Origin: a virus
Lineage: Duplodnaviria > Caudoviricetes
DNA length: 26,532 nucleotides
Virus record (IMG/VR): IMGVR_UViG_3300049472_000071
Coordinates: 1-26,532 of that record
Reading direction: 5' to 3' (one strand)
Shown: one piece after another, positions 18,996-26,532 of the stretch
How positions within the stretch are numbered: the first letter of the stretch is position 1
Layout: each line of letters opens with the position of its first letter
Program-made: the position numbers and the translations under genes
Notes under the pieces: model-generated
Told to the model about the DNA's origin: nothing
Databases searched by the model: none
Seen by the model: only the letters and a program-made list of their open reading frames with translations

Positions 18996-19487
18996 TTATT
19001 GTTTTACTTCCCAACTTTTTGAATAATTATGGTTTTGATAATATGCCGCAATGCCCAATTGCTGTTTTAGCCTGATATATTCTTCTGCTTCCATACCGAG
19101 GTTTTTTGCTATCTCTATATCTGAAAGCCCTAATTCATTCAGTTTTACGACTAAGTTGGACATGCTTTCTACCTTGTGCATCCCTTTTATTCTGTTCATT
19201 AAAACGGTCAATTGCATCGCTTGTTCAATAGTTATTTGCAAGTCGATTACCATTGCTTTTTTTGATTCAAGGCGTTTTAATGTCTCATACCTATGCTCCC
19301 CGTCAATTATCCTGTATTTGCCTTTTTCTTTGTCGAAAGTGGTTATAATTGGAAAAAGAAAACCATACGTTTTGATACATTCTTTTAACAAGTCCATTTC
19401 AGTCTTTGGCATTTTGTTCGGGTTGTAGTCATTTGCATATAGCATGTCAATGTCTACTACTATTGGGGTTACGAATTTGATTTCCAT
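18996..19487 (-). CDS. ParB/Srx-like nuclease-fold protein (IbrB/YbdM-like)
   Basis: LYANDYNPNKM, GFLFPII, IIDGEHRY and NRIKG.H, plus a C-terminal HTH (SDIEIAKNLGM). TAATG-coupled to the IbrA-like gene. Confidence 0.9.
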   Translation of the reverse strand: MEIKFVTPIVVDIDMLYANDYNPNKMPKTEMDLLKECIKTYGFLFPIITTFDKEKGKYRIIDGEHRYETLKRLESKKAMVIDLQITIEQAMQLTVLMNRIKGMHKVESMSNLVVKLNELGLSDIEIAKNLGMEAEEYIRLKQQLGIAAYYQNHNYSKSWEVKQ

Positions 19488-20563
19488 TATAGTATGTCTA
19501 TATATTTTTGTTTAACTATTTGTCTTTTTTCTTCGTGGTCAGTTCTTACGTCCGTTATGTTTTCAAAGTCGTTTATAAGTAGTTGTCCTACTTGCTGTTT
19601 ATACACGTCCTCGTTATTTGGGTGGTTTTCGAATCGTTTTATAAACCTTGCTTTTTGTGATGGATTGTGGTGGTTGTCCAATAGGAAGTCCCGAAACTCC
19701 TTCCATGTTTTGTAATGAGTAGGAAGTTTCTCGTTACTATACATTTGCTTTTCCTTCACATATCTCATCGCTGTCGCCACTCCTTTTATCCTTTGACATA
19801 GCCAATGGTAGGTTTCAGGTTCAAACTCTGGCAAATCGGCAAGGCAATCAAAACTTTTTTCGTGTATGAGGCAAGATACCCTCATGTTTTCCTTATGGTA
19901 GTTTTTGGCAAATTGCCAATCATACACCTTGTTGTACTTCACTTGGTTGTCAAACATATACCTCCAAATGTCATCAAAACCAAAATCGTAGATAGGGTAG
20001 AAATTTATTAGATTTGAGTTTGACGTTTTGGTACTCCAATTAATACCTTCAATTGCGGGGTTTTTGGTCACAGCCCGATACCTGTTAAGGCTTTCAGAAC
20101 TTCTTAACCCTATTAACTGTGCCGTTGGTTCTTTGTACTGGCTTTCCAATGCTGGCAATAGTTTTTCCCATGTCAGATTGGAAGGCAAACCTAAATCTTT
20201 TATGCTATCTTTTTCAAGTTCACGGATATGCCCTCCGTCCCAACAGTTGAGATAATCCTGTTCGTAACTTGCTGAATTAGTCATTTGAAAAGGGACTTGA
20301 TACCACCTGAATATTACATTATGTTGCCTTGACAAATGCCTTATTATTGCAATCGTATTAGCATATTCAGCTTCTTGGTCAATAAATACAGCCTCAAACG
20401 TCCTATTTCGTCTTATAGCTTCTTTATGTACCAAATCAAACATTACGCTACTATCCTTACCGCCGCTTACCGAAACTGTTATATGTTTGTACAAGTCAAA
20501 CAATAACGATATTCGTTCCCTTGCAGCATCAACTACGGTATTTAGTTTATAAATTCTTGCCAT
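19487..20563 (-). CDS. PAPS-reductase-like PP-loop protein (IbrA/YbdN, DUF3440-like)
   Basis: PP-loop VSVSGGKDS, FIDQEA, GLRSSESLNR, YPIYDF...DIW and MRVSCLIHE. Confidence 0.9.
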   Translation of the reverse strand: MARIYKLNTVVDAARERISLLFDLYKHITVSVSGGKDSSVMFDLVHKEAIRRNRTFEAVFIDQEAEYANTIAIIRHLSRQHNVIFRWYQVPFQMTNSASYEQDYLNCWDGGHIRELEKDSIKDLGLPSNLTWEKLLPALESQYKEPTAQLIGLRSSESLNRYRAVTKNPAIEGINWSTKTSNSNLINFYPIYDFGFDDIWRYMFDNQVKYNKVYDWQFAKNYHKENMRVSCLIHEKSFDCLADLPEFEPETYHWLCQRIKGVATAMRYVKEKQMYSNEKLPTHYKTWKEFRDFLLDNHHNPSQKARFIKRFENHPNNEDVYKQQVGQLLINDFENITDVRTDHEEKRQIVKQKYIDIL

Positions 20564-21053
20564 GGCAATTATGTGTGTATCTTTTTTGTGACATAAAATC
20601 TAAAAATCTTTCTATTACATAGTCTGTTTGAAGTATTTTATTACTATCCATTGACACGCTTAGATAGTATCCCTCGTTTTTCTGTTTTGCAAGCAATTGA
20701 TGTGGGCTGTGACCATCCAGAACAAAATAAAGCCCCTTTTGTGGCTTTATTTCTTTTTTGTTTAACCCCCTCAACACAAATGTAGAATCACAATAAAGTA
20801 TTAAATGATGTGTAAACTTATTATACCCCTTGTCAGTGTGGAGCGGAGTTTGCTTTTGCACTCCAATATAATGGGGGCTTGACGTGCCGATATTATTCCC
20901 CCACGTCTTTAGCTTGTGTTTTTTGTCTTTGAAAATATATTTCAAATCTAAAACGGATACATATGGCGTTTCACATACAATGTGTTCGATGTTATAAAAT
21001 GGGTACTCTGACTCATTTTCTTTTAACTGGTATGTCTCGAAATCTACTTTCAT
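20547..21053 (-). CDS. Putative 2OG-Fe(II)-type (double-stranded beta-helix) oxygenase
   Basis: HxD (TPLHTD) followed by beta strands, G.YFVLDGHSPH (distal His) and a final strand YLSVSMD. Confidence 0.55.
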   Translation of the reverse strand: MKVDFETYQLKENESEYPFYNIEHIVCETPYVSVLDLKYIFKDKKHKLKTWGNNIGTSSPHYIGVQKQTPLHTDKGYNKFTHHLILYCDSTFVLRGLNKKEIKPQKGLYFVLDGHSPHQLLAKQKNEGYYLSVSMDSNKILQTDYVIERFLDFMSQKRYTHNCHGKNL

Positions 21054-21646
21054 GACTTAAATGTTAATGATTGTCTTTTACTACTTCTACGTTTGTCTAT
21101 TGCCGAAACCCCTTCAATATGGTCAACTAGATTTGGCACTACTACCCAATATTTTATCTTATTCTGTTTAAAATATGATGCCATCATTATATCGGTTGGA
21201 CATCCTTTTTCAGTCATTGTCTGTTCGTATTCTTTCCCAAATTGGTAGATTTTTTTTGCCATGCCATTTGGTAGGTAATAACATTGTTGCATGGAAAAAT
21301 TGCCACCCAATTCATACCTACTCCCTTTTGTCAAATCTGCATTTCTTCTGGAAAAAAACTGGATTACTTCATTAGGTCTTTGTTTAATCTCAATAAGGCA
21401 TTTGTCCATAAAGTTCTCACATAATATAATGTCATCATCCATTTGGACAGTTGACTTCTCTCCAGCCAAATGCAACCCATTTAGATAATTTTTCCATGCT
21501 GATGTAATTATCTCATTATCATTAGTATAATTATCGTAATTTACAATTATATCATTAATGTTTTGCTTTATATTTTCAATATATTTTTCTCTGTTTCTAC
21601 AGGTTTGTACTATAAAAACTGGAATCAAATTGTGCTCTAAGTTCAT
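21050..21646 (-). CDS. Putative GT-A fold glycosyltransferase
   Basis: FIVQTC..RE start, VQMDDDIILC (DxD), PTD catalytic-base-like motif and PNLVDH...S, a GT25-like pattern. Confidence 0.65.
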   Translation of the reverse strand: MNLEHNLIPVFIVQTCRNREKYIENIKQNINDIIVNYDNYTNDNEIITSAWKNYLNGLHLAGEKSTVQMDDDIILCENFMDKCLIEIKQRPNEVIQFFSRRNADLTKGSRYELGGNFSMQQCYYLPNGMAKKIYQFGKEYEQTMTEKGCPTDIMMASYFKQNKIKYWVVVPNLVDHIEGVSAIDKRRSSKRQSLTFKS

Positions 21647-22622
21647 TGTTGAAAATTTTATCGTGGAAGTAAGATTCTAGCTTGTTGTTAATCAATTTTA
21701 GCTGAATTATGTCTTGAGAATATTTTAGGCTCGCCTCTATATACAGCCATGAATGAGGCTTTACGATTGGCATCTCGGCAAGTACGATGGTTTCAAACTT
21801 TTCAAAATCGCTAGGTTGGCTATGTATAGACAAAAACTTAACTGATTTATTTTCAATATATTTACCTATCATTTTCGGGTATATACCTAAAGCGTTTATC
21901 ACAATACAAGCATTTTTAAGGTCTTTTGTTGCCTTGTTCAATGCCTCGTATTTTGTTTCTATCAAATTTATTTGCTCGCTACAAGCATTATATAGCTTGA
22001 TTGGATTGGTAAACTCAGAAGTTTCTTTTGATTTGCGTGTGATATACTTTTGCAAATCCTGTTCTGTCATTTGCCACTCAACAAACTGTCTTTTTTTGAA
22101 AAAACAATCGTAGTCCTGAATATAATAGTCTTTTATTTTGTCTTTCAATACCGAAAAAGAATGAGCCAAATCAACACCGCCGTTATTTTTTTCCTCAAAA
22201 TGATTGCCTTTGAATGTGTTGTAAGACCCATATCCAAGTATGTTTTTACCTAATAAGTAAAACGGGTAAAATATCTCGTGCGGCTCAGTGTAGAACGGTA
22301 CTATGTCAGTTACTATCACATTTTTTAACCCTTGTGATATGTTTTTTAAATAGTCTTTTTTGCCGTCCCCAAAATAAACACACTTCAATACGTTGTCAAT
22401 TACCAGTAGTGAGTTTTCATTTACCGTTTTGGTAAACTCAATCCAATTCTCGGTCTTATTTAGGTCTTTTAACGGCAATATCAAAGCCTCGATACCTTCA
22501 TATACTTTTGCCCTATCTTTTTCGCATAAAATATAAATATTGCTTGGGTTTATCTCTTCGATTGATTTTCGGATAAAATTAACCCTACTTTTGTCCGATT
22601 TTGTGACGTAAAACTTTTTCAT
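21597..22622 (-). CDS. Degenerate (probably ATPase-dead) SNF2-like helicase paralog
   Basis: The start is revised to ATG 22622 (ATGA overlap, GAGG upstream). Segments align by eye with the neighbouring helicase, but Walker A/B and motif VI are eroded. Confidence 0.6.
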   Translation of the reverse strand: MKKFYVTKSDKSRVNFIRKSIEEINPSNIYILCEKDRAKVYEGIEALILPLKDLNKTENWIEFTKTVNENSLLVIDNVLKCVYFGDGKKDYLKNISQGLKNVIVTDIVPFYTEPHEIFYPFYLLGKNILGYGSYNTFKGNHFEEKNNGGVDLAHSFSVLKDKIKDYYIQDYDCFFKKRQFVEWQMTEQDLQKYITRKSKETSEFTNPIKLYNACSEQINLIETKYEALNKATKDLKNACIVINALGIYPKMIGKYIENKSVKFLSIHSQPSDFEKFETIVLAEMPIVKPHSWLYIEASLKYSQDIIQLKLINNKLESYFHDKIFNNELRAQFDSSFYSTNL

Positions 22623-23836
22623 AATACCTCTTTTAACTCTTTTTTGGTTATTGATTTGAAATACATCAAATTGTCGTACTTTTTGTCGTTGTTTTCTTTC
22701 ATTAAACTGCAAAGTTTCTTGTTTGATTGGAGTCTAATGTATATGCAGTCTTTCGTTTGACCAGTCCTATACGTCCTATACTTGTATTGGTCAACCTTTG
22801 CGAAATCCCATGTCTTGTCAAATTCAATAGTGACGTGCCTAGATTGTAGGTTAAGGCTCATTGCATCTGATTGGATGCTCAAAACTGGAATATTTGGGAA
22901 TCGCTTTTTACATTCTTTTTTGCTATCAATGAACTTGCAGTAAATGATTACATTTTCTTCCCCATAATAGTCAATATATGTTTTACAAATGGCAAACTTT
23001 TCTTCCGAGCAACTATACACATGCTGCATCTTCATTGTCATCTCAAGGAAAATGTTGTTGTTCATGAATTGCAGTTTTTCATTGTCAAGATATTTTACCT
23101 TCAATCGCTTATATTCCTCATTTTCTTCATCAGAAACCTTATAGCTGGCATCAATGTATTGCATCCCCACCTCTAGGCATAAATCAGCCTCATAAACGTA
23201 TGGTCGAATTAGCGAATACAAGTAATCAATGTTGTGATACTGAACAATATACTCTTTAGTATAGCCTTTTTTGCCCCCAAAGAACTTCGTCACCTTTTTG
23301 TATTCGCAAAACGTGTTTTTAAATTCAGCATCGGACATGTTTAGAATTTTCCTAGAAAGGAAGTCCATTTGCGGTTTAATGTCCAAAAGGTTACGGCTTA
23401 TGGGTGTCCCATTTAGAATCAACTTGTATTCACATCTATTGCTAAGTTCCTGAATACGTTTCGTGCGATTAGCCTCCACGTTTTTTATCAAAAGGCTTTC
23501 GTCACACACCAAAAAAGTATTTTTACTTTCGACCTTATTTAGCAATTCAAGATAGATTCTGTCGCTACTGCTTAGGCTTTCGATTCCATAGTAATATATT
23601 GGCACATCAAAGCCTCCCCACTTGTCCACTTCTGATTTAATGCCAGAACCTTCCATTATCGGATTGACTGATTTGAAAGGCGCAAGCCAAACTACTTGCT
23701 CAATATTAGGCGCACTTTTAATCAATTCAATTGCCGTCCTACTTTTACCAGTGCCGGGTCTTTTAAACAAAGCCCCTACTTTCAATAACGAAAGCTTGTC
23801 TATCGCTTGTGATTGGCTATCTAATAAGGCTTTCAT
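22619..23836 (-). CDS. SNF2-family (SF2) helicase/ATPase
   Basis: Q motif LLDSQ, Walker A PGTGKS, Walker B VCDES, motif III NGTP, motif V SLNLQ and motif VI QYKYRTYRTGQ. Confidence 0.9.
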   Translation of the reverse strand: MKALLDSQSQAIDKLSLLKVGALFKRPGTGKSRTAIELIKSAPNIEQVVWLAPFKSVNPIMEGSGIKSEVDKWGGFDVPIYYYGIESLSSSDRIYLELLNKVESKNTFLVCDESLLIKNVEANRTKRIQELSNRCEYKLILNGTPISRNLLDIKPQMDFLSRKILNMSDAEFKNTFCEYKKVTKFFGGKKGYTKEYIVQYHNIDYLYSLIRPYVYEADLCLEVGMQYIDASYKVSDEENEEYKRLKVKYLDNEKLQFMNNNIFLEMTMKMQHVYSCSEEKFAICKTYIDYYGEENVIIYCKFIDSKKECKKRFPNIPVLSIQSDAMSLNLQSRHVTIEFDKTWDFAKVDQYKYRTYRTGQTKDCIYIRLQSNKKLCSLMKENNDKKYDNLMYFKSITKKELKEVL

Positions 23837-24146
23837 TTACTTTTGATTCTATTGGTTCTATTCTTGTTGGAACGTGTGTTTCTACGTGTACATGAAAAGA
23901 AGGCTCTACGCGCTGTTTTTCTGGGTTAAACCAGCCTTCTTTTTTAGTAGAATATTGAAGTTCTTTTTTTTCTAATATCCATGCTGCTATCCAGTAGGCA
24001 TCTGACTTTTGTACATCATAATCCTGCCCGAATATTTGTGTCTTTTGGAGTATAGCCTCTGAACCATCAAATGCAACTGCTTTATATGCTTTGTCGCTTA
24101 TAGAGGTGAGACTCGAAAGCTTCACCGAATAGCATTTTGTTTTCAT
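23817..24146 (-). CDS. Hypothetical protein, coupled to helicase
   Basis: 109 aa beta-rich ORF overlapping the helicase start by 20 nt. Confidence 0.75.
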   Translation of the reverse strand: MKTKCYSVKLSSLTSISDKAYKAVAFDGSEAILQKTQIFGQDYDVQKSDAYWIAAWILEKKELQYSTKKEGWFNPEKQRVEPSFHVHVETHVPTRIEPIESKVNESLIR

Positions 24147-24433
24147 TAGACAACTTCAAAAATCAAGTCTCTGTCCGCATCTGAAAAACACAGAATATTT
24201 TTTGAGTCGCCATATCCTTTTTTAAACCAAGGTGAATCTATCCATTGATTGAAAGCATAAGCCAAATTGTCCCCTTCAATTGATTCTGTGGTAAAAGGAT
24301 TCTTTTTTGTTTCGTCAAACGAAATAATTATATCTATTCCAGTGTAAGGTTCATTAGCTCTATCGGCAGGGGCAAACCACTTGATTGTTTTCCCTACTAA
24401 TGTTTTTGCGATTTCTAGGCTTAACTCGTTCAT
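24146..24433 (-). CDS. Hypothetical protein
   Basis: 95 aa, ATG start, TAATG coupling to the next gene. Confidence 0.7.
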   Translation of the reverse strand: MNELSLEIAKTLVGKTIKWFAPADRANEPYTGIDIIISFDETKKNPFTTESIEGDNLAYAFNQWIDSPWFKKGYGDSKNILCFSDADRDLIFEVV

Positions 24434-24456
24434 GACTTTATTACTTATAAAGTTAA

Positions 24457-24669
24457 TTATTTGATTAATTTATGTACAGCAGTGGGATTAAGTAAGTACT
24501 CACGTACATGAGCCTCTTTAAATGTAAAAAGTTGGTGTTGGTCTGATATAACCAATATCCCATTAGAGTCCGCACCTTTTACAGTACATAAGCCAATATA
24601 AGAAACGATAAATGTTTTGTTGATTAAGTCTTTAGGACAAGCCGACTTGTATTTTCTTGAAAGTTCCAT
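24457..24669 (-). CDS. Hypothetical protein
   Basis: The start is revised to ATG 24669 (MELSRKYK), downstream of a promoter box and an A-rich leader. Confidence 0.6.
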   Translation of the reverse strand: MELSRKYKSACPKDLINKTFIVSYIGLCTVKGADSNGILVISDQHQLFTFKEAHVREYLLNPTAVHKLIK

Positions 24670-24717
24670 TGCATTTTTGCAGAGTTTTAAGAGCTGCCCC
24701 GCTCTGTTTGTGTGATA

Positions 24718-24725
24718 CAAAGATA
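24718..24725 (-). promoter_or_regulatory. Bacteroidota-type -7 promoter element (TATCTTTG) heading the helicase/modification operon
   Basis: TAnnTTTG match in a very AT-rich intergenic region. Confidence 0.6.
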
Positions 24726-24787
24726 ATTAATTATTCTATATAAATAATATAATAAGCTAAAAATGGTAGTTTACTCTTAGGTTTATT

Positions 24788-25348
24788 TTACTCTTGGCTT
24801 AAATACCTCTCAATCCTATGTACAAACTTCCAATATAAGCCTTCGTTCAGGCTTTTCAACCGCACCAATATGTCTTGGTAGTTGACAAACTTCAATATCT
24901 TTTCAAAATCGTTTGCGCCCCAAATCAAATGACAAAATCTACATGATAATAACAAATTGGTTTCGTTTGTTGAATACTCCTTGTTGCCTACTCCAACTAT
25001 GTGGAATAAATCGACTTCGCCCGACTTGCCACATAGTTCGCATTTCTTTCCCTGTATACTAATTTTGCGCTTTTTGATTTGAGCCAAAACAGCAAGTTCG
25101 TTTGCCTTGTCTTTAGAAACGGGCTTGATTTTTGTCTTTTTTGATTCTTTATGTGTCCCAAAACTTCCATCCGACCGCTCTCCAGTATATCCAGCTTTGT
25201 TTCGTTCATTTTGTTTCTTTTTAACGGTCATTCCTTTTGACTGTGCGCTACGTTCATGTCTTTCCTTTGCTCCGATTGGGCATAAGCCCTTGGAGTTTAA
25301 TGATGACATTGTATTGTGGCAAATACATAAACCGTACTTTTTAGTCAT
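24788..25348 (-). CDS. HNH/NinG-like zinc-binding endonuclease
   Basis: CELC...DLFHI...NLLLSCRFCH pattern, with a basic N-terminal half carrying extra Cys/His. Confidence 0.7.
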   Translation of the reverse strand: MTKKYGLCICHNTMSSLNSKGLCPIGAKERHERSAQSKGMTVKKKQNERNKAGYTGERSDGSFGTHKESKKTKIKPVSKDKANELAVLAQIKKRKISIQGKKCELCGKSGEVDLFHIVGVGNKEYSTNETNLLLSCRFCHLIWGANDFEKILKFVNYQDILVRLKSLNEGLYWKFVHRIERYLSQE

Positions 25349-25440
25349 AAAGGCTGTTTGGTCTTACTTTTAGCCTATTTAAAATATATTTGGCTCACTC
25401 CAATATGAACAATTATGATGCACATTCATTTCTCGTTTTG

Positions 25441-25897
25441 AAGTGTATTACGTAGCTGTGCTACTCGCCATTTCTTTAATTATTGGAAGTTCGCCCTACT
25501 CCCACCGTTTGTACTTCACGGTTTACCAATCGCAAGCTGCATTGGGGCGTTTTGTTTTTCTTTGGCACACTTCGAGAGCTTCACTCGCCTTCTTTTTTAT
25601 TCAAATCCCATTACGTACTTGGGCAGCTTTATACTTTGTGAGCCAAAACTTTCAATTACTTGACTATGCCCATTGTAAGATACTTGCATATTTGCCGTAT
25701 GCAAGAACGACTAACATAACATAGCCAAATGTTATTGCGACCTTCTTTGCTTTGCAGATTGTTTCAGAATACTATCCCTGCAAAATGCGTATTCCTTTTA
25801 CTCGTAGGTCGCAAAACCTTAAATATCTTAAATAACTTTGTGCCTTTCGACTAATCGCAACTATACGGAAATTCCGAACAGTTGCGGAATTACACTC
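25441..25897 (-). ncRNA. Candidate large structured non-coding RNA
   Basis: No minus-strand ORF of 60 aa or more. At least eight inverted repeats and complementary ends are present (see findings). Confidence 0.45.
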
Positions 25898-26112
25898 TAA
25901 ACCTTATTCTTTATTCTTCTTTCAAGTTCTTCTGTCATTTGTTCAAACTTTCTAACTCTTACTTTTTCAGTAAAACAACCAGAATAAGTTGACAATCTAA
26001 CCCATCCAGTACGGTATTCAAGCGTATTTATCTCTCTTTCATTCTCAATCTTATAAGCACTTCTGTATCTTGGCTCTAATTCATTGAAAATCTTCCACGC
26101 TTGATTCTCCAT
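25897..26112 (-). CDS. Hypothetical protein
   Basis: The start is revised to ATG 26112 (MENQAWK), 1 nt after the stop of the upstream small ORF. Confidence 0.65.
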   Translation of the reverse strand: MENQAWKIFNELEPRYRSAYKIENEREINTLEYRTGWVRLSTYSGCFTEKVRVRKFEQMTEELERRIKNKV

Positions 26113-26113
26113 A

Positions 26114-26275
26114 CTAAAACTCAAATTGTTTCCTAAATGCCTTTCTAATCGCTTTTACTTTTGTCTTTGTGTAATACCTTTCTTTATTGACTTGAACGGG
26201 CTTCTTGTCGGCAAAACGGAATGTTCCATCTTTCTCCAACTCAAAGCTTGTCTCTATTTCAGGTTGTGGTATCAT
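26114..26275 (-). CDS. Small basic hypothetical protein (53 aa)
   Basis: Manual translation MIPQPEIETSFELEKDGTFRFADKKPVQVNKERYYTKTKVKAIRKAFRKQFEF. It fills the gap between neighbours and is below the track cutoff. Confidence 0.55.
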   Translation of the reverse strand: MIPQPEIETSFELEKDGTFRFADKKPVQVNKERYYTKTKVKAIRKAFRKQFEF

Positions 26276-26447
26276 TTTTAAGTTTCTCTCTAATCTTTTT
26301 AGGCAACGTCCCAGTATGGTATAATTTGACCCTTTTTGTTATCTGCTTGAATAACATCTCTGACAAGTTTTTTTTTAAGATACGATGCACGGTACTTTGC
26401 TCCATGCCTGTATTCATAACTATATCCGTTTCCGTCATCCAATCCAT
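26259..26447 (-). CDS. Small HTH-like DNA-binding protein
   Basis: The start is revised to ATG 26447. WMTETDIVMNTGMEQSTVHRILKK resembles an HTH. Confidence 0.55.
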   Translation of the reverse strand: MDWMTETDIVMNTGMEQSTVHRILKKNLSEMLFKQITKRVKLYHTGTLPKKIREKLKNDTTT

Positions 26448-26451
26448 TGCA

Positions 26452-26459
26452 CAAATATA
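26452..26459 (-). promoter_or_regulatory. Bacteroidota-type -7 promoter element (TATATTTG)
   Basis: TAnnTTTG 4 nt before ATG 26447, with AT-rich upstream sequence. Confidence 0.65.
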
Positions 26460-26532
26460 GAGATAGTATTTTAATTTACAATACATGAATTTATATATTT
26501 TTTAACTTACTGATTATTATAATACATAAAGA

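Follow-up and report, generated by a model that had tools for sequence, protein, structure and literature searches.

The longest gene-free stretch on the minus strand of a tailed-phage genome fragment very probably encodes a functional structured RNA. The window analysed here is the whole of a 26.5-kb linear virus record (26,532 nucleotides, about 36% complete); all coordinates refer to it, and features lie on its minus strand unless stated otherwise. The tract, at 25349-25909, is supported as a real structured RNA region that lies outside Rfam and is apparently non-coding. It is highly likely to be modular, with exchange of modules among relatives, and module swaps are directly visible, with their breakpoints at conserved stems and junctions. 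Our preferred reading, held tentatively and at somewhat less than even confidence, is that the tract is a conserved modular array of non-coding RNA cassettes, which would be transcribed as part of an operon and cut into small RNAs serving as counter-defence decoys or mimics.

An earlier sequence-only reading had placed a candidate large non-coding RNA at 25441-25897, in what it described as the only long gap of this strand. The gap is there: no other ORF-free stretch of the minus strand is as long as 25349-25896. Its 3′ end lies about 90 nt further on than first described, at 25349. Together with motifs shared with relatives at its 5′ and 3′ ends, this gives an array of about 560 nt. The predicted fold of 25349-25910 was more stable than those of all 100 shuffled sequences (z = −4.25). 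The 457-nt tract originally proposed also outperformed all 100 shuffles on each strand, its z being −3.90 for the minus and −2.94 for the plus. As controls, 18 windows of 200 nt were folded at 1.5-kb steps; 16 of them fell between z = −1.4 and +1.6, and the remaining two gave −2.3 and −3.8, the latter just upstream of the tract. A 200-nt coding window at 500-699 folded with z = −2.3. Inside the tract, the 5′ window reached −3.5 and the 3′ window only −1.6. No Rfam family matched the window at E ≤ 1, and ARAGORN predicted no tRNA in it.

Homologous pieces were found on 10 other contigs, which represent only three further lineages: L003, L181 and the L019 group. The last consists of eight near-identical contigs (L018, L019, L050, L084, L086, L093, L118 and L175), counted as one lineage, which come from many separate assemblies and are 97-100% identical wherever they share sequence. 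L003 was reached through the HNH protein; its homologue lies in a gap of 510 nt, at a distance of 1.7 kb from the HNH gene (nhmmer E = 1.8e-7). A shared-motif search led to L018 and L019, three of its nine loci being homologous and one of these being L003 again. A search with the loop pattern of the terminal hairpin, PZ, led to L175 and L181 (4 of 15 loci homologous, two of them already known, and 11 unrelated), and a metagenome search yielded five homologous loci out of 117, on five contigs. The same 17-nt PZ loop pattern was observed in a non-coding stretch of an unrelated phage group (L168, L176, L180 and L182), consistent with chance. Member counts are lower bounds, as the metagenome scan covered 17 of 64 parts and one viral scan 56 of 64.

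Annotated phages and plasmids contained no real match to the window, L019 or L003 arrays. None of 15 loci from a pattern scan of the genome collection was homologous, and the HNH alignment had no match there; a paired-arm pattern scan likewise gave no homologue among eight loci. Five records related through terminase or HNH, mostly fragments, showed no array. A Bacteroidota order, presumed from its rRNA leader to be Flavobacteriales, was represented by 401 genomes; 16 of them gave single short matches, each to one 21-47-nt piece. Fifteen such loci were fetched and the flanks of eight were examined: four proved to be a palindrome in rhuM-family genes (see below) and none was an array. The array family was seldom met in the collections scanned, and the searches turned up no cultured member.

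The conserved order of elements, from 5′ to 3′, is P1, P2, linker J, module M3, module M4, junction J4/5, module M5 and PZ. Ahead of P1 lies a 5′ motif common to L003 (25897-25909), which overlaps the stop codon of an ORF in the window and is non-coding in L003. P1 (25857-25885) is a 13-bp hairpin that covaries with L003, showing two double and four single compatible changes; all nine differences between the two sequences keep or improve pairing, and the probability of retaining 13 pairs randomly was 1.2e-4. P2 (25842-25851) is a 3-bp tetraloop hairpin, two of whose three pairs have changed on both sides among the window, L003, L019 and L086. When P1 and P2 were scored together, 39 of 40 cells were paired and four pairs had changed on both sides, a result matched by 3 of 500 shuffles; slid controls were 20-40% paired.

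Downstream of the conserved U/A-rich linker J (25818-25836), M3 (25735-25814; 74-121 nt among lineages) has a conserved closing stem of 9-12 bp, P3, around a variable interior, and three inner pairs of P3 covary across three lineages. M4 (25658-25730; 73-190 nt) is closed by a conserved 11-bp stem, P4 (pair probability 0.98), with two one-sided and no double changes. Its interior is also variable, and is tRNA-like in the L019 group. The interiors of M3 and M4 could not be aligned, MAFFT failing on M3, and the pairs of P3 and P4 were derived from end-anchored tables. Covariation was scored over only four lineages, so that counts are small and come partly from one sequence pair. The folding, the homologues and the covariation of P1, P2 and the P3 closing stem together support a conserved structured phage RNA. 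Arrays of the other lineages were also folded: that of L003 gave z = −3.2 in the sense orientation versus −0.8 in the antisense, and those of L019 (z = −1.7) and L181 (z = −0.4) folded no better than shuffles.

P1 is identical at 25 of 27 positions to a perfect DNA palindrome inside rhuM-family genes. This palindrome was present in four of the 401 genomes (L224, L226, L227 and L229, at about 1501-1527), where it encodes a TVRNFRTV-type motif, and a similar one occurs in an ORF of the phage locus L002 (L002:269). The palindrome may be an operator or the origin of P1.

The conserved junction motif J4/5 (25647-25657), of which a second copy in the L019 group marks a swap breakpoint, leads into M5 (25389-25647). 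M5 is closed by a 10-bp stem, P5, formed by 25638-25647 with 25389-25398 (alternative 3′ arm at 25561-25570), with a pair probability of 0.85; a perfect partner was found in 0.14% of 5000 shuffles. The stem encloses hairpins at 25504-25522, 25526-25545 and 25452-25464, and the module contains a linker, 25468-25486, common to L181. A 3′ closing strand follows (25375-25388), and then PZ (25351-25376), a terminal hairpin whose A-rich loop is invariant and which lies immediately ahead of the next start codon. These last 26 nt of the array are common to two other lineages, 24-25 nt being identical in the window, the L019 group and L181, and L003 has only a partial look-alike; the pair probability of PZ was 0.46. 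In the 562-nt frame the closing strand paired either with 25823-25835, in J, or with 25891-25902, in the region of the 5′ motif, with a probability of 0.47 each, and with slightly different bounds the pairing with 25823-25835 reached 0.96. In the window J is a candidate for the 5′ strand of a long-range closing helix of 13 bp. Only 0.5% of 1500 shuffles reached 13 bp, and the helix was not predicted in L003, L019 or L181.

These predictions bear on the 11 helices named in the sequence-only reading. Each of the eight arm pairs for which it gave coordinates is an exact reverse complement at the places stated, and ACCGT/ACGGT (25504/25518), CCAAT/ATTGG (25526/25541) and GTAGC/GCTAC (25452/25460) are present as well. 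Seven of the 11 helices had mean pair probabilities of 0.79-0.99, and four were not predicted in the full-length fold. Three of the four, ATAACAT/ATGTTAT, TGGGCA/TGCCCA and the CGCCC/GGGCG helix of the supposed three-way junction, had a probability of 0.0 in each of the two frames, and the first two are incompatible with the conserved P4 stem. The pairing of the two ends, AGTGTA/TACACT, had a probability of 0.97 in the 457-nt frame and 0.0 in the 562-nt frame. The RNA ends proposed earlier are probably wrong.

Comparison within the L019 group showed where modules had been exchanged. L018 and L019 have identical flanks and differ only inside P4. L018, L050, L084, L093 and L118 all leave the L019 sequence at position 673, which is the end of the repeated junction motif in L019; L018, L084 and L093 rejoin it at 751-753, about 80 nt later, and L050 at 821, about 150 nt later. 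Between modules, L050 has an ORF and L084 has extra tRNA-like units. L093 is without P1-P2, and L181 is without M3 and M4 though its downstream gene is near-identical to that of L019. Swaps seen in a single contig (L050, L084 and the 5′ end of L093) could be assembly artefacts, and the start of L093 resembles a sequencing adapter.

Units bearing a T-arm were found in or near the array at all seven L019-group loci scanned, and also in L003. Three of five related records gave one tRNA-like match each, and the window gave none. The tRNA-like genes at L003:1855-1937, L018:2007-2089, L084:362-444 and L093:2016-2098 have normal D- and T-arms, and the anticodon arm of all four can be drawn as extended by an extra hairpin. 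The end of L084 is taken up by a tRNA-like unit whose anticodon loop has an insertion of about 60 nt. Directly ahead of the L003 array lies a histone H1-like Hc1 gene (L003:551-802; Pfam E = 2e-18).

Upstream of the array, a Bacteroidota sigma-A promoter of the form TTG-N19-TAnnTTTG was predicted at 26452-26481. The TTG element and the spacing are those of the Bacteroidota promoter pattern. The −7 box of this promoter is described in PMC9723704 as occupying positions −12 to −5, which puts the predicted +1 on the first ATG, at 26447. The pattern matched three times in the window against 1.0 expected, and 9 of 100 shuffles reached three, so that by itself it lacks significance. The site recurs before the same gene in L086, and no exact same-strand match was found in the stretches examined for L003, L019 and L181. 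The first operon gene, predicted to be leaderless, is a small HTH-like ORF (26259-26447) with weak HTH matches below the cut-off; a near-identical gene is present in L086, and small HTH-like ORFs, again below the cut-off, lie upstream in L181 and L019. Next comes a conserved 53-aa ORF (26114-26275), which occurs in 11 other clusters and, in the L019 group, keeps its syntenic place ahead of the array.

The promoter, the HTH-like gene and the 53-aa gene are common to the window and L086 (80% identity over 398 nt), and the two sequences diverge immediately beyond the 53-aa stop codon. At this point the window has a 71-aa ORF (25897-26112), where L086 and L019 have a non-coding module. The ORF had no homologue among two candidates; its product was predicted to be folded, with a TM of 0.72 to a viral cluster, and its mRNA (25897-26116) to form a long interrupted hairpin (z = −3.0). 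The ORF is probably coding, and the stretch may act as protein, as RNA or as both. Downstream, and outside the element, a 186-aa HNH-like ORF (24788-25348) starts right after PZ; its Pfam HNH match was below the cut-off and its PHROG matches were weak, and a search with it gave 53 hits. No minus-strand intrinsic terminator was found in 24000-26532, and a discrete RNA would therefore need processing.

The minus strand of the window also carries terminase, head protease, tape-measure and helicase genes. ParB-like, PAPS-reductase-like, glycosyltransferase-like and SNF2 helicase genes lie ahead of the terminase at 18996-23836 and are possibly a DNA modification module. A 109-aa ORF of the window and a gene of one relative matched only Flavobacterium phages, and from these best matches we infer a Bacteroidota host. 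One freshwater sediment metagenome DNA run contains the region, as a single contig with no differences from the assembly, and is possibly the source of the window.

In the cassette-array reading, host sigma-A polymerase would start at 26481-26452 and read through the three small ORFs into the array, as an early operon. Each module would fold alone behind its 9-12-bp closing stem. With their U/A-rich linkers these stems resemble tRNA acceptor stems, and they could be cut by RNase P or RNase E-type enzymes to release small stable RNAs, with which the phage would counter host defences by decoy or mimicry. RNase P is described as cutting the non-tRNA phage RNAs C4 and M3 (PMC11143913) and a Y RNA whose acceptor-like stem is 7 bp long (PMC4201824). 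Closing stems of at least 7 bp with single-stranded flanks, a feature of RNase P substrates, are predicted and conserved in the array (P3, 9-12 bp; P4, 11 bp; P5, 10 bp). In our assessment it is an even call whether the array would be processed into separate RNAs. The short conserved flanks may double as recombination crossover points, which would explain a fast turnover of cargo, and fast turnover next to tRNA look-alikes points to a role in an arms race.

Phage tRNAs are described in PMC11555353 as countering host defences that cut tRNAs. A counter-defence role for the array is proposed from this precedent together with the hypervariability and the tRNA-like cargo; we regard it as possible, with rather less than an even chance of being correct. 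Against the decoy reading, the window's own modules contain neither a tRNA nor a T-arm motif, so that no decoy target is indicated here. A search of the phage for an antisense target found none, the best match being AT-rich with E = 0.04.

Two observations also count against separate modules: the order P1-P2-J-M3-M4-M5 is kept in three lineages, and the window copy is predicted to be closed end to end, by nested long-range stems whose frequencies in shuffles (0.14% for 10 bp, 0.5% for 13 bp) make chance unlikely. Kept order and end-to-end closure fit a single molecule equally well. The main rival to the cassette array is a single large ornate RNA that stays intact and works like GOLLD (RF02032) or ROOL (RF03087), as a scaffold that assembles itself and whose peripheral domains are dispensable; we consider this unlikely. 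Those two RNAs are described in PMC12286853 as phage-encoded, located near tRNA-like genes and of unknown function. The array resembles them in being phage-encoded, several hundred nucleotides long and rich in stems, and perhaps in lying near tRNA-like genes, but it is conserved only in short stems and junctions, its interiors are swapped and most of its length cannot be aligned. Neither model matched. GOLLD gave no hit in the window at E ≤ 10 or in four relatives at E ≤ 1, with no control genome over the cut-off, and ROOL gave none in the window, nor in the controls. Moreover, L181 dispenses with M3/M4 and L093 with P1/P2, L050 has an ORF inside, long-range closure was not predicted in the other lineages, and no conserved pseudoknot or kissing loop was seen on inspection. 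The earlier suggestion of a large phage non-coding RNA thus stands in so far as the RNA is conserved and structured; a single rigid GOLLD/ROOL-like molecule is not borne out, because the models fail, stem interiors are unalignable and modules are gained, lost and swapped in relatives.

The succession of hairpin, U-rich linker and long-range stem recalls the layout of rRNA operon leaders described in PMC13753749 and PMC4807359. The tract might on this account be a cis-acting element in which P2 and the weakly boxA-like linker recruit Nus factors, giving read-through, folding of the long stems and control of downstream genes. J had the top or joint-top boxA score in each of the four arrays, and the array has promoter-proximal genes on one side and the remainder of the operon on the other, no terminator having been found on the minus strand. 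The linkers, however, scored 4.7-5.9 bits (4.7 in the window) on a matrix built from 20 host sites, far below the 11.4-19.5 bits of 28 of 38 host leader or spacer regions, the other 10 having no site in the part scanned. As many as 48 of 26519 minus-strand positions score at least 4, so that about one is expected per array, and the window's linker is without the near-invariant C of boxA. A BLAST comparison with boxA sites gave hits in 1 of 8 cases for the window, and 4 of 45 control pieces matched as well. The long stem is not conserved across lineages and the swapped cargo would be left unexplained; we regard such a leader-like element as improbable.

The inverted repeats might instead act on DNA, as the boundaries at which inserts, either neutral or selfish, recombine, and RNA structure would then be their by-product. 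Swap breakpoints do fall at conserved motifs, the plus strand folds too (z = −2.9), P1 is close to the rhuM-family palindrome, and L181 and L019 fold weakly. Nevertheless, P1 and P4 have accumulated G-U pairs, which hold on the sense strand alone, L003 folds on one strand only and the cargo includes intact D- and T-arms. We find this explanation decidedly improbable.

The 186-aa HNH-like ORF that begins right after PZ could point to an HNH-associated guide RNA of the HEARO or omega kind, or to a group I intron with a homing nuclease; both are very improbable. The array resembles HEARO (RF02033) in being a structured tract directly upstream of an HNH-like ORF and differs in that the linkage is not conserved: among the window, L002, L003, L019 and L181, HNH adjacency occurs only in the window. 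The HNH gene of L002 abuts another ORF, with no array found on that record, the one in L003 is 1.7 kb away, and other genes follow the array in L019 and L181. The HEARO model matched none of five records, with no control over the cut-off. The group I model (RF00028) also matched none of five, with controls over the cut-off in two, and the flanking genes differ, so that there is no interrupted gene. The array appears to be an uncatalogued family, separate from GOLLD, ROOL, HEARO and group I introns, as judged with models of which the first three had no positive control over the cut-off.

A decayed protein gene or chance structure is hardly credible: the tract shares sequence with ORFs of 93 and 52 aa on the plus strand, where P1 reads as a RhuM-like peptide motif, behind an in-frame stop, but neither ORF matched PHROG, the 93-aa ORF had no Pfam match, the atlas score of 0.75 was within the range of shuffled input, and the covariation of P1, P2 and P3 argues against it. 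Conservation tracks the stems, and the indels are of any length.

RNAC and RNAD are located in the T4 tRNA cluster. They are described in PMC9697503 as small RNAs of unknown function made by T4. The array is comparable to them and to phage tRNA clusters as a putative source of small stable phage RNAs, its relatives holding tRNA-like units, and differs in having no Rfam or sequence match and no canonical tRNA in the window. With the C4 antisense RNA of P1/P7, the M3 RNA and Y RNAs, as described in PMC11143913 and PMC4201824, it has in common an acceptor-like closing stem; it differs in that no antisense target was found and the window copy has no T-arm. No Ro60 was detected among 30 window ORFs scanned in Pfam. 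Literature searches found no description of the array element, nor of fixed stems with exchangeable interiors. A motif search of part of the supplements of PMC10690425 gave no match, and pieces of the array could be among its 10,006 candidates (30-151 nt).

Large phage RNAs such as GOLLD, ROOL and T4 RNAC/RNAD have long been without an assigned function. Fixed stems carrying different cargo in near-identical genomes constitute a natural experiment that separates scaffold from payload, and each cassette, at 70-190 nt, is small enough for single testing. It is a speculative and quite unlikely prospect that the array represents a new kind of locus, whose stems would be both processing signals and recombination handles for loading swappable small-RNA cargo, such as tRNA mimics and other folds; it would then be an evolvable counter-defence arsenal made of RNA, corresponding to an anti-defence gene island. 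If the cargo does counter defences, phages of this family would have an RNA-based route of counter-defence that is refreshed by recombination.
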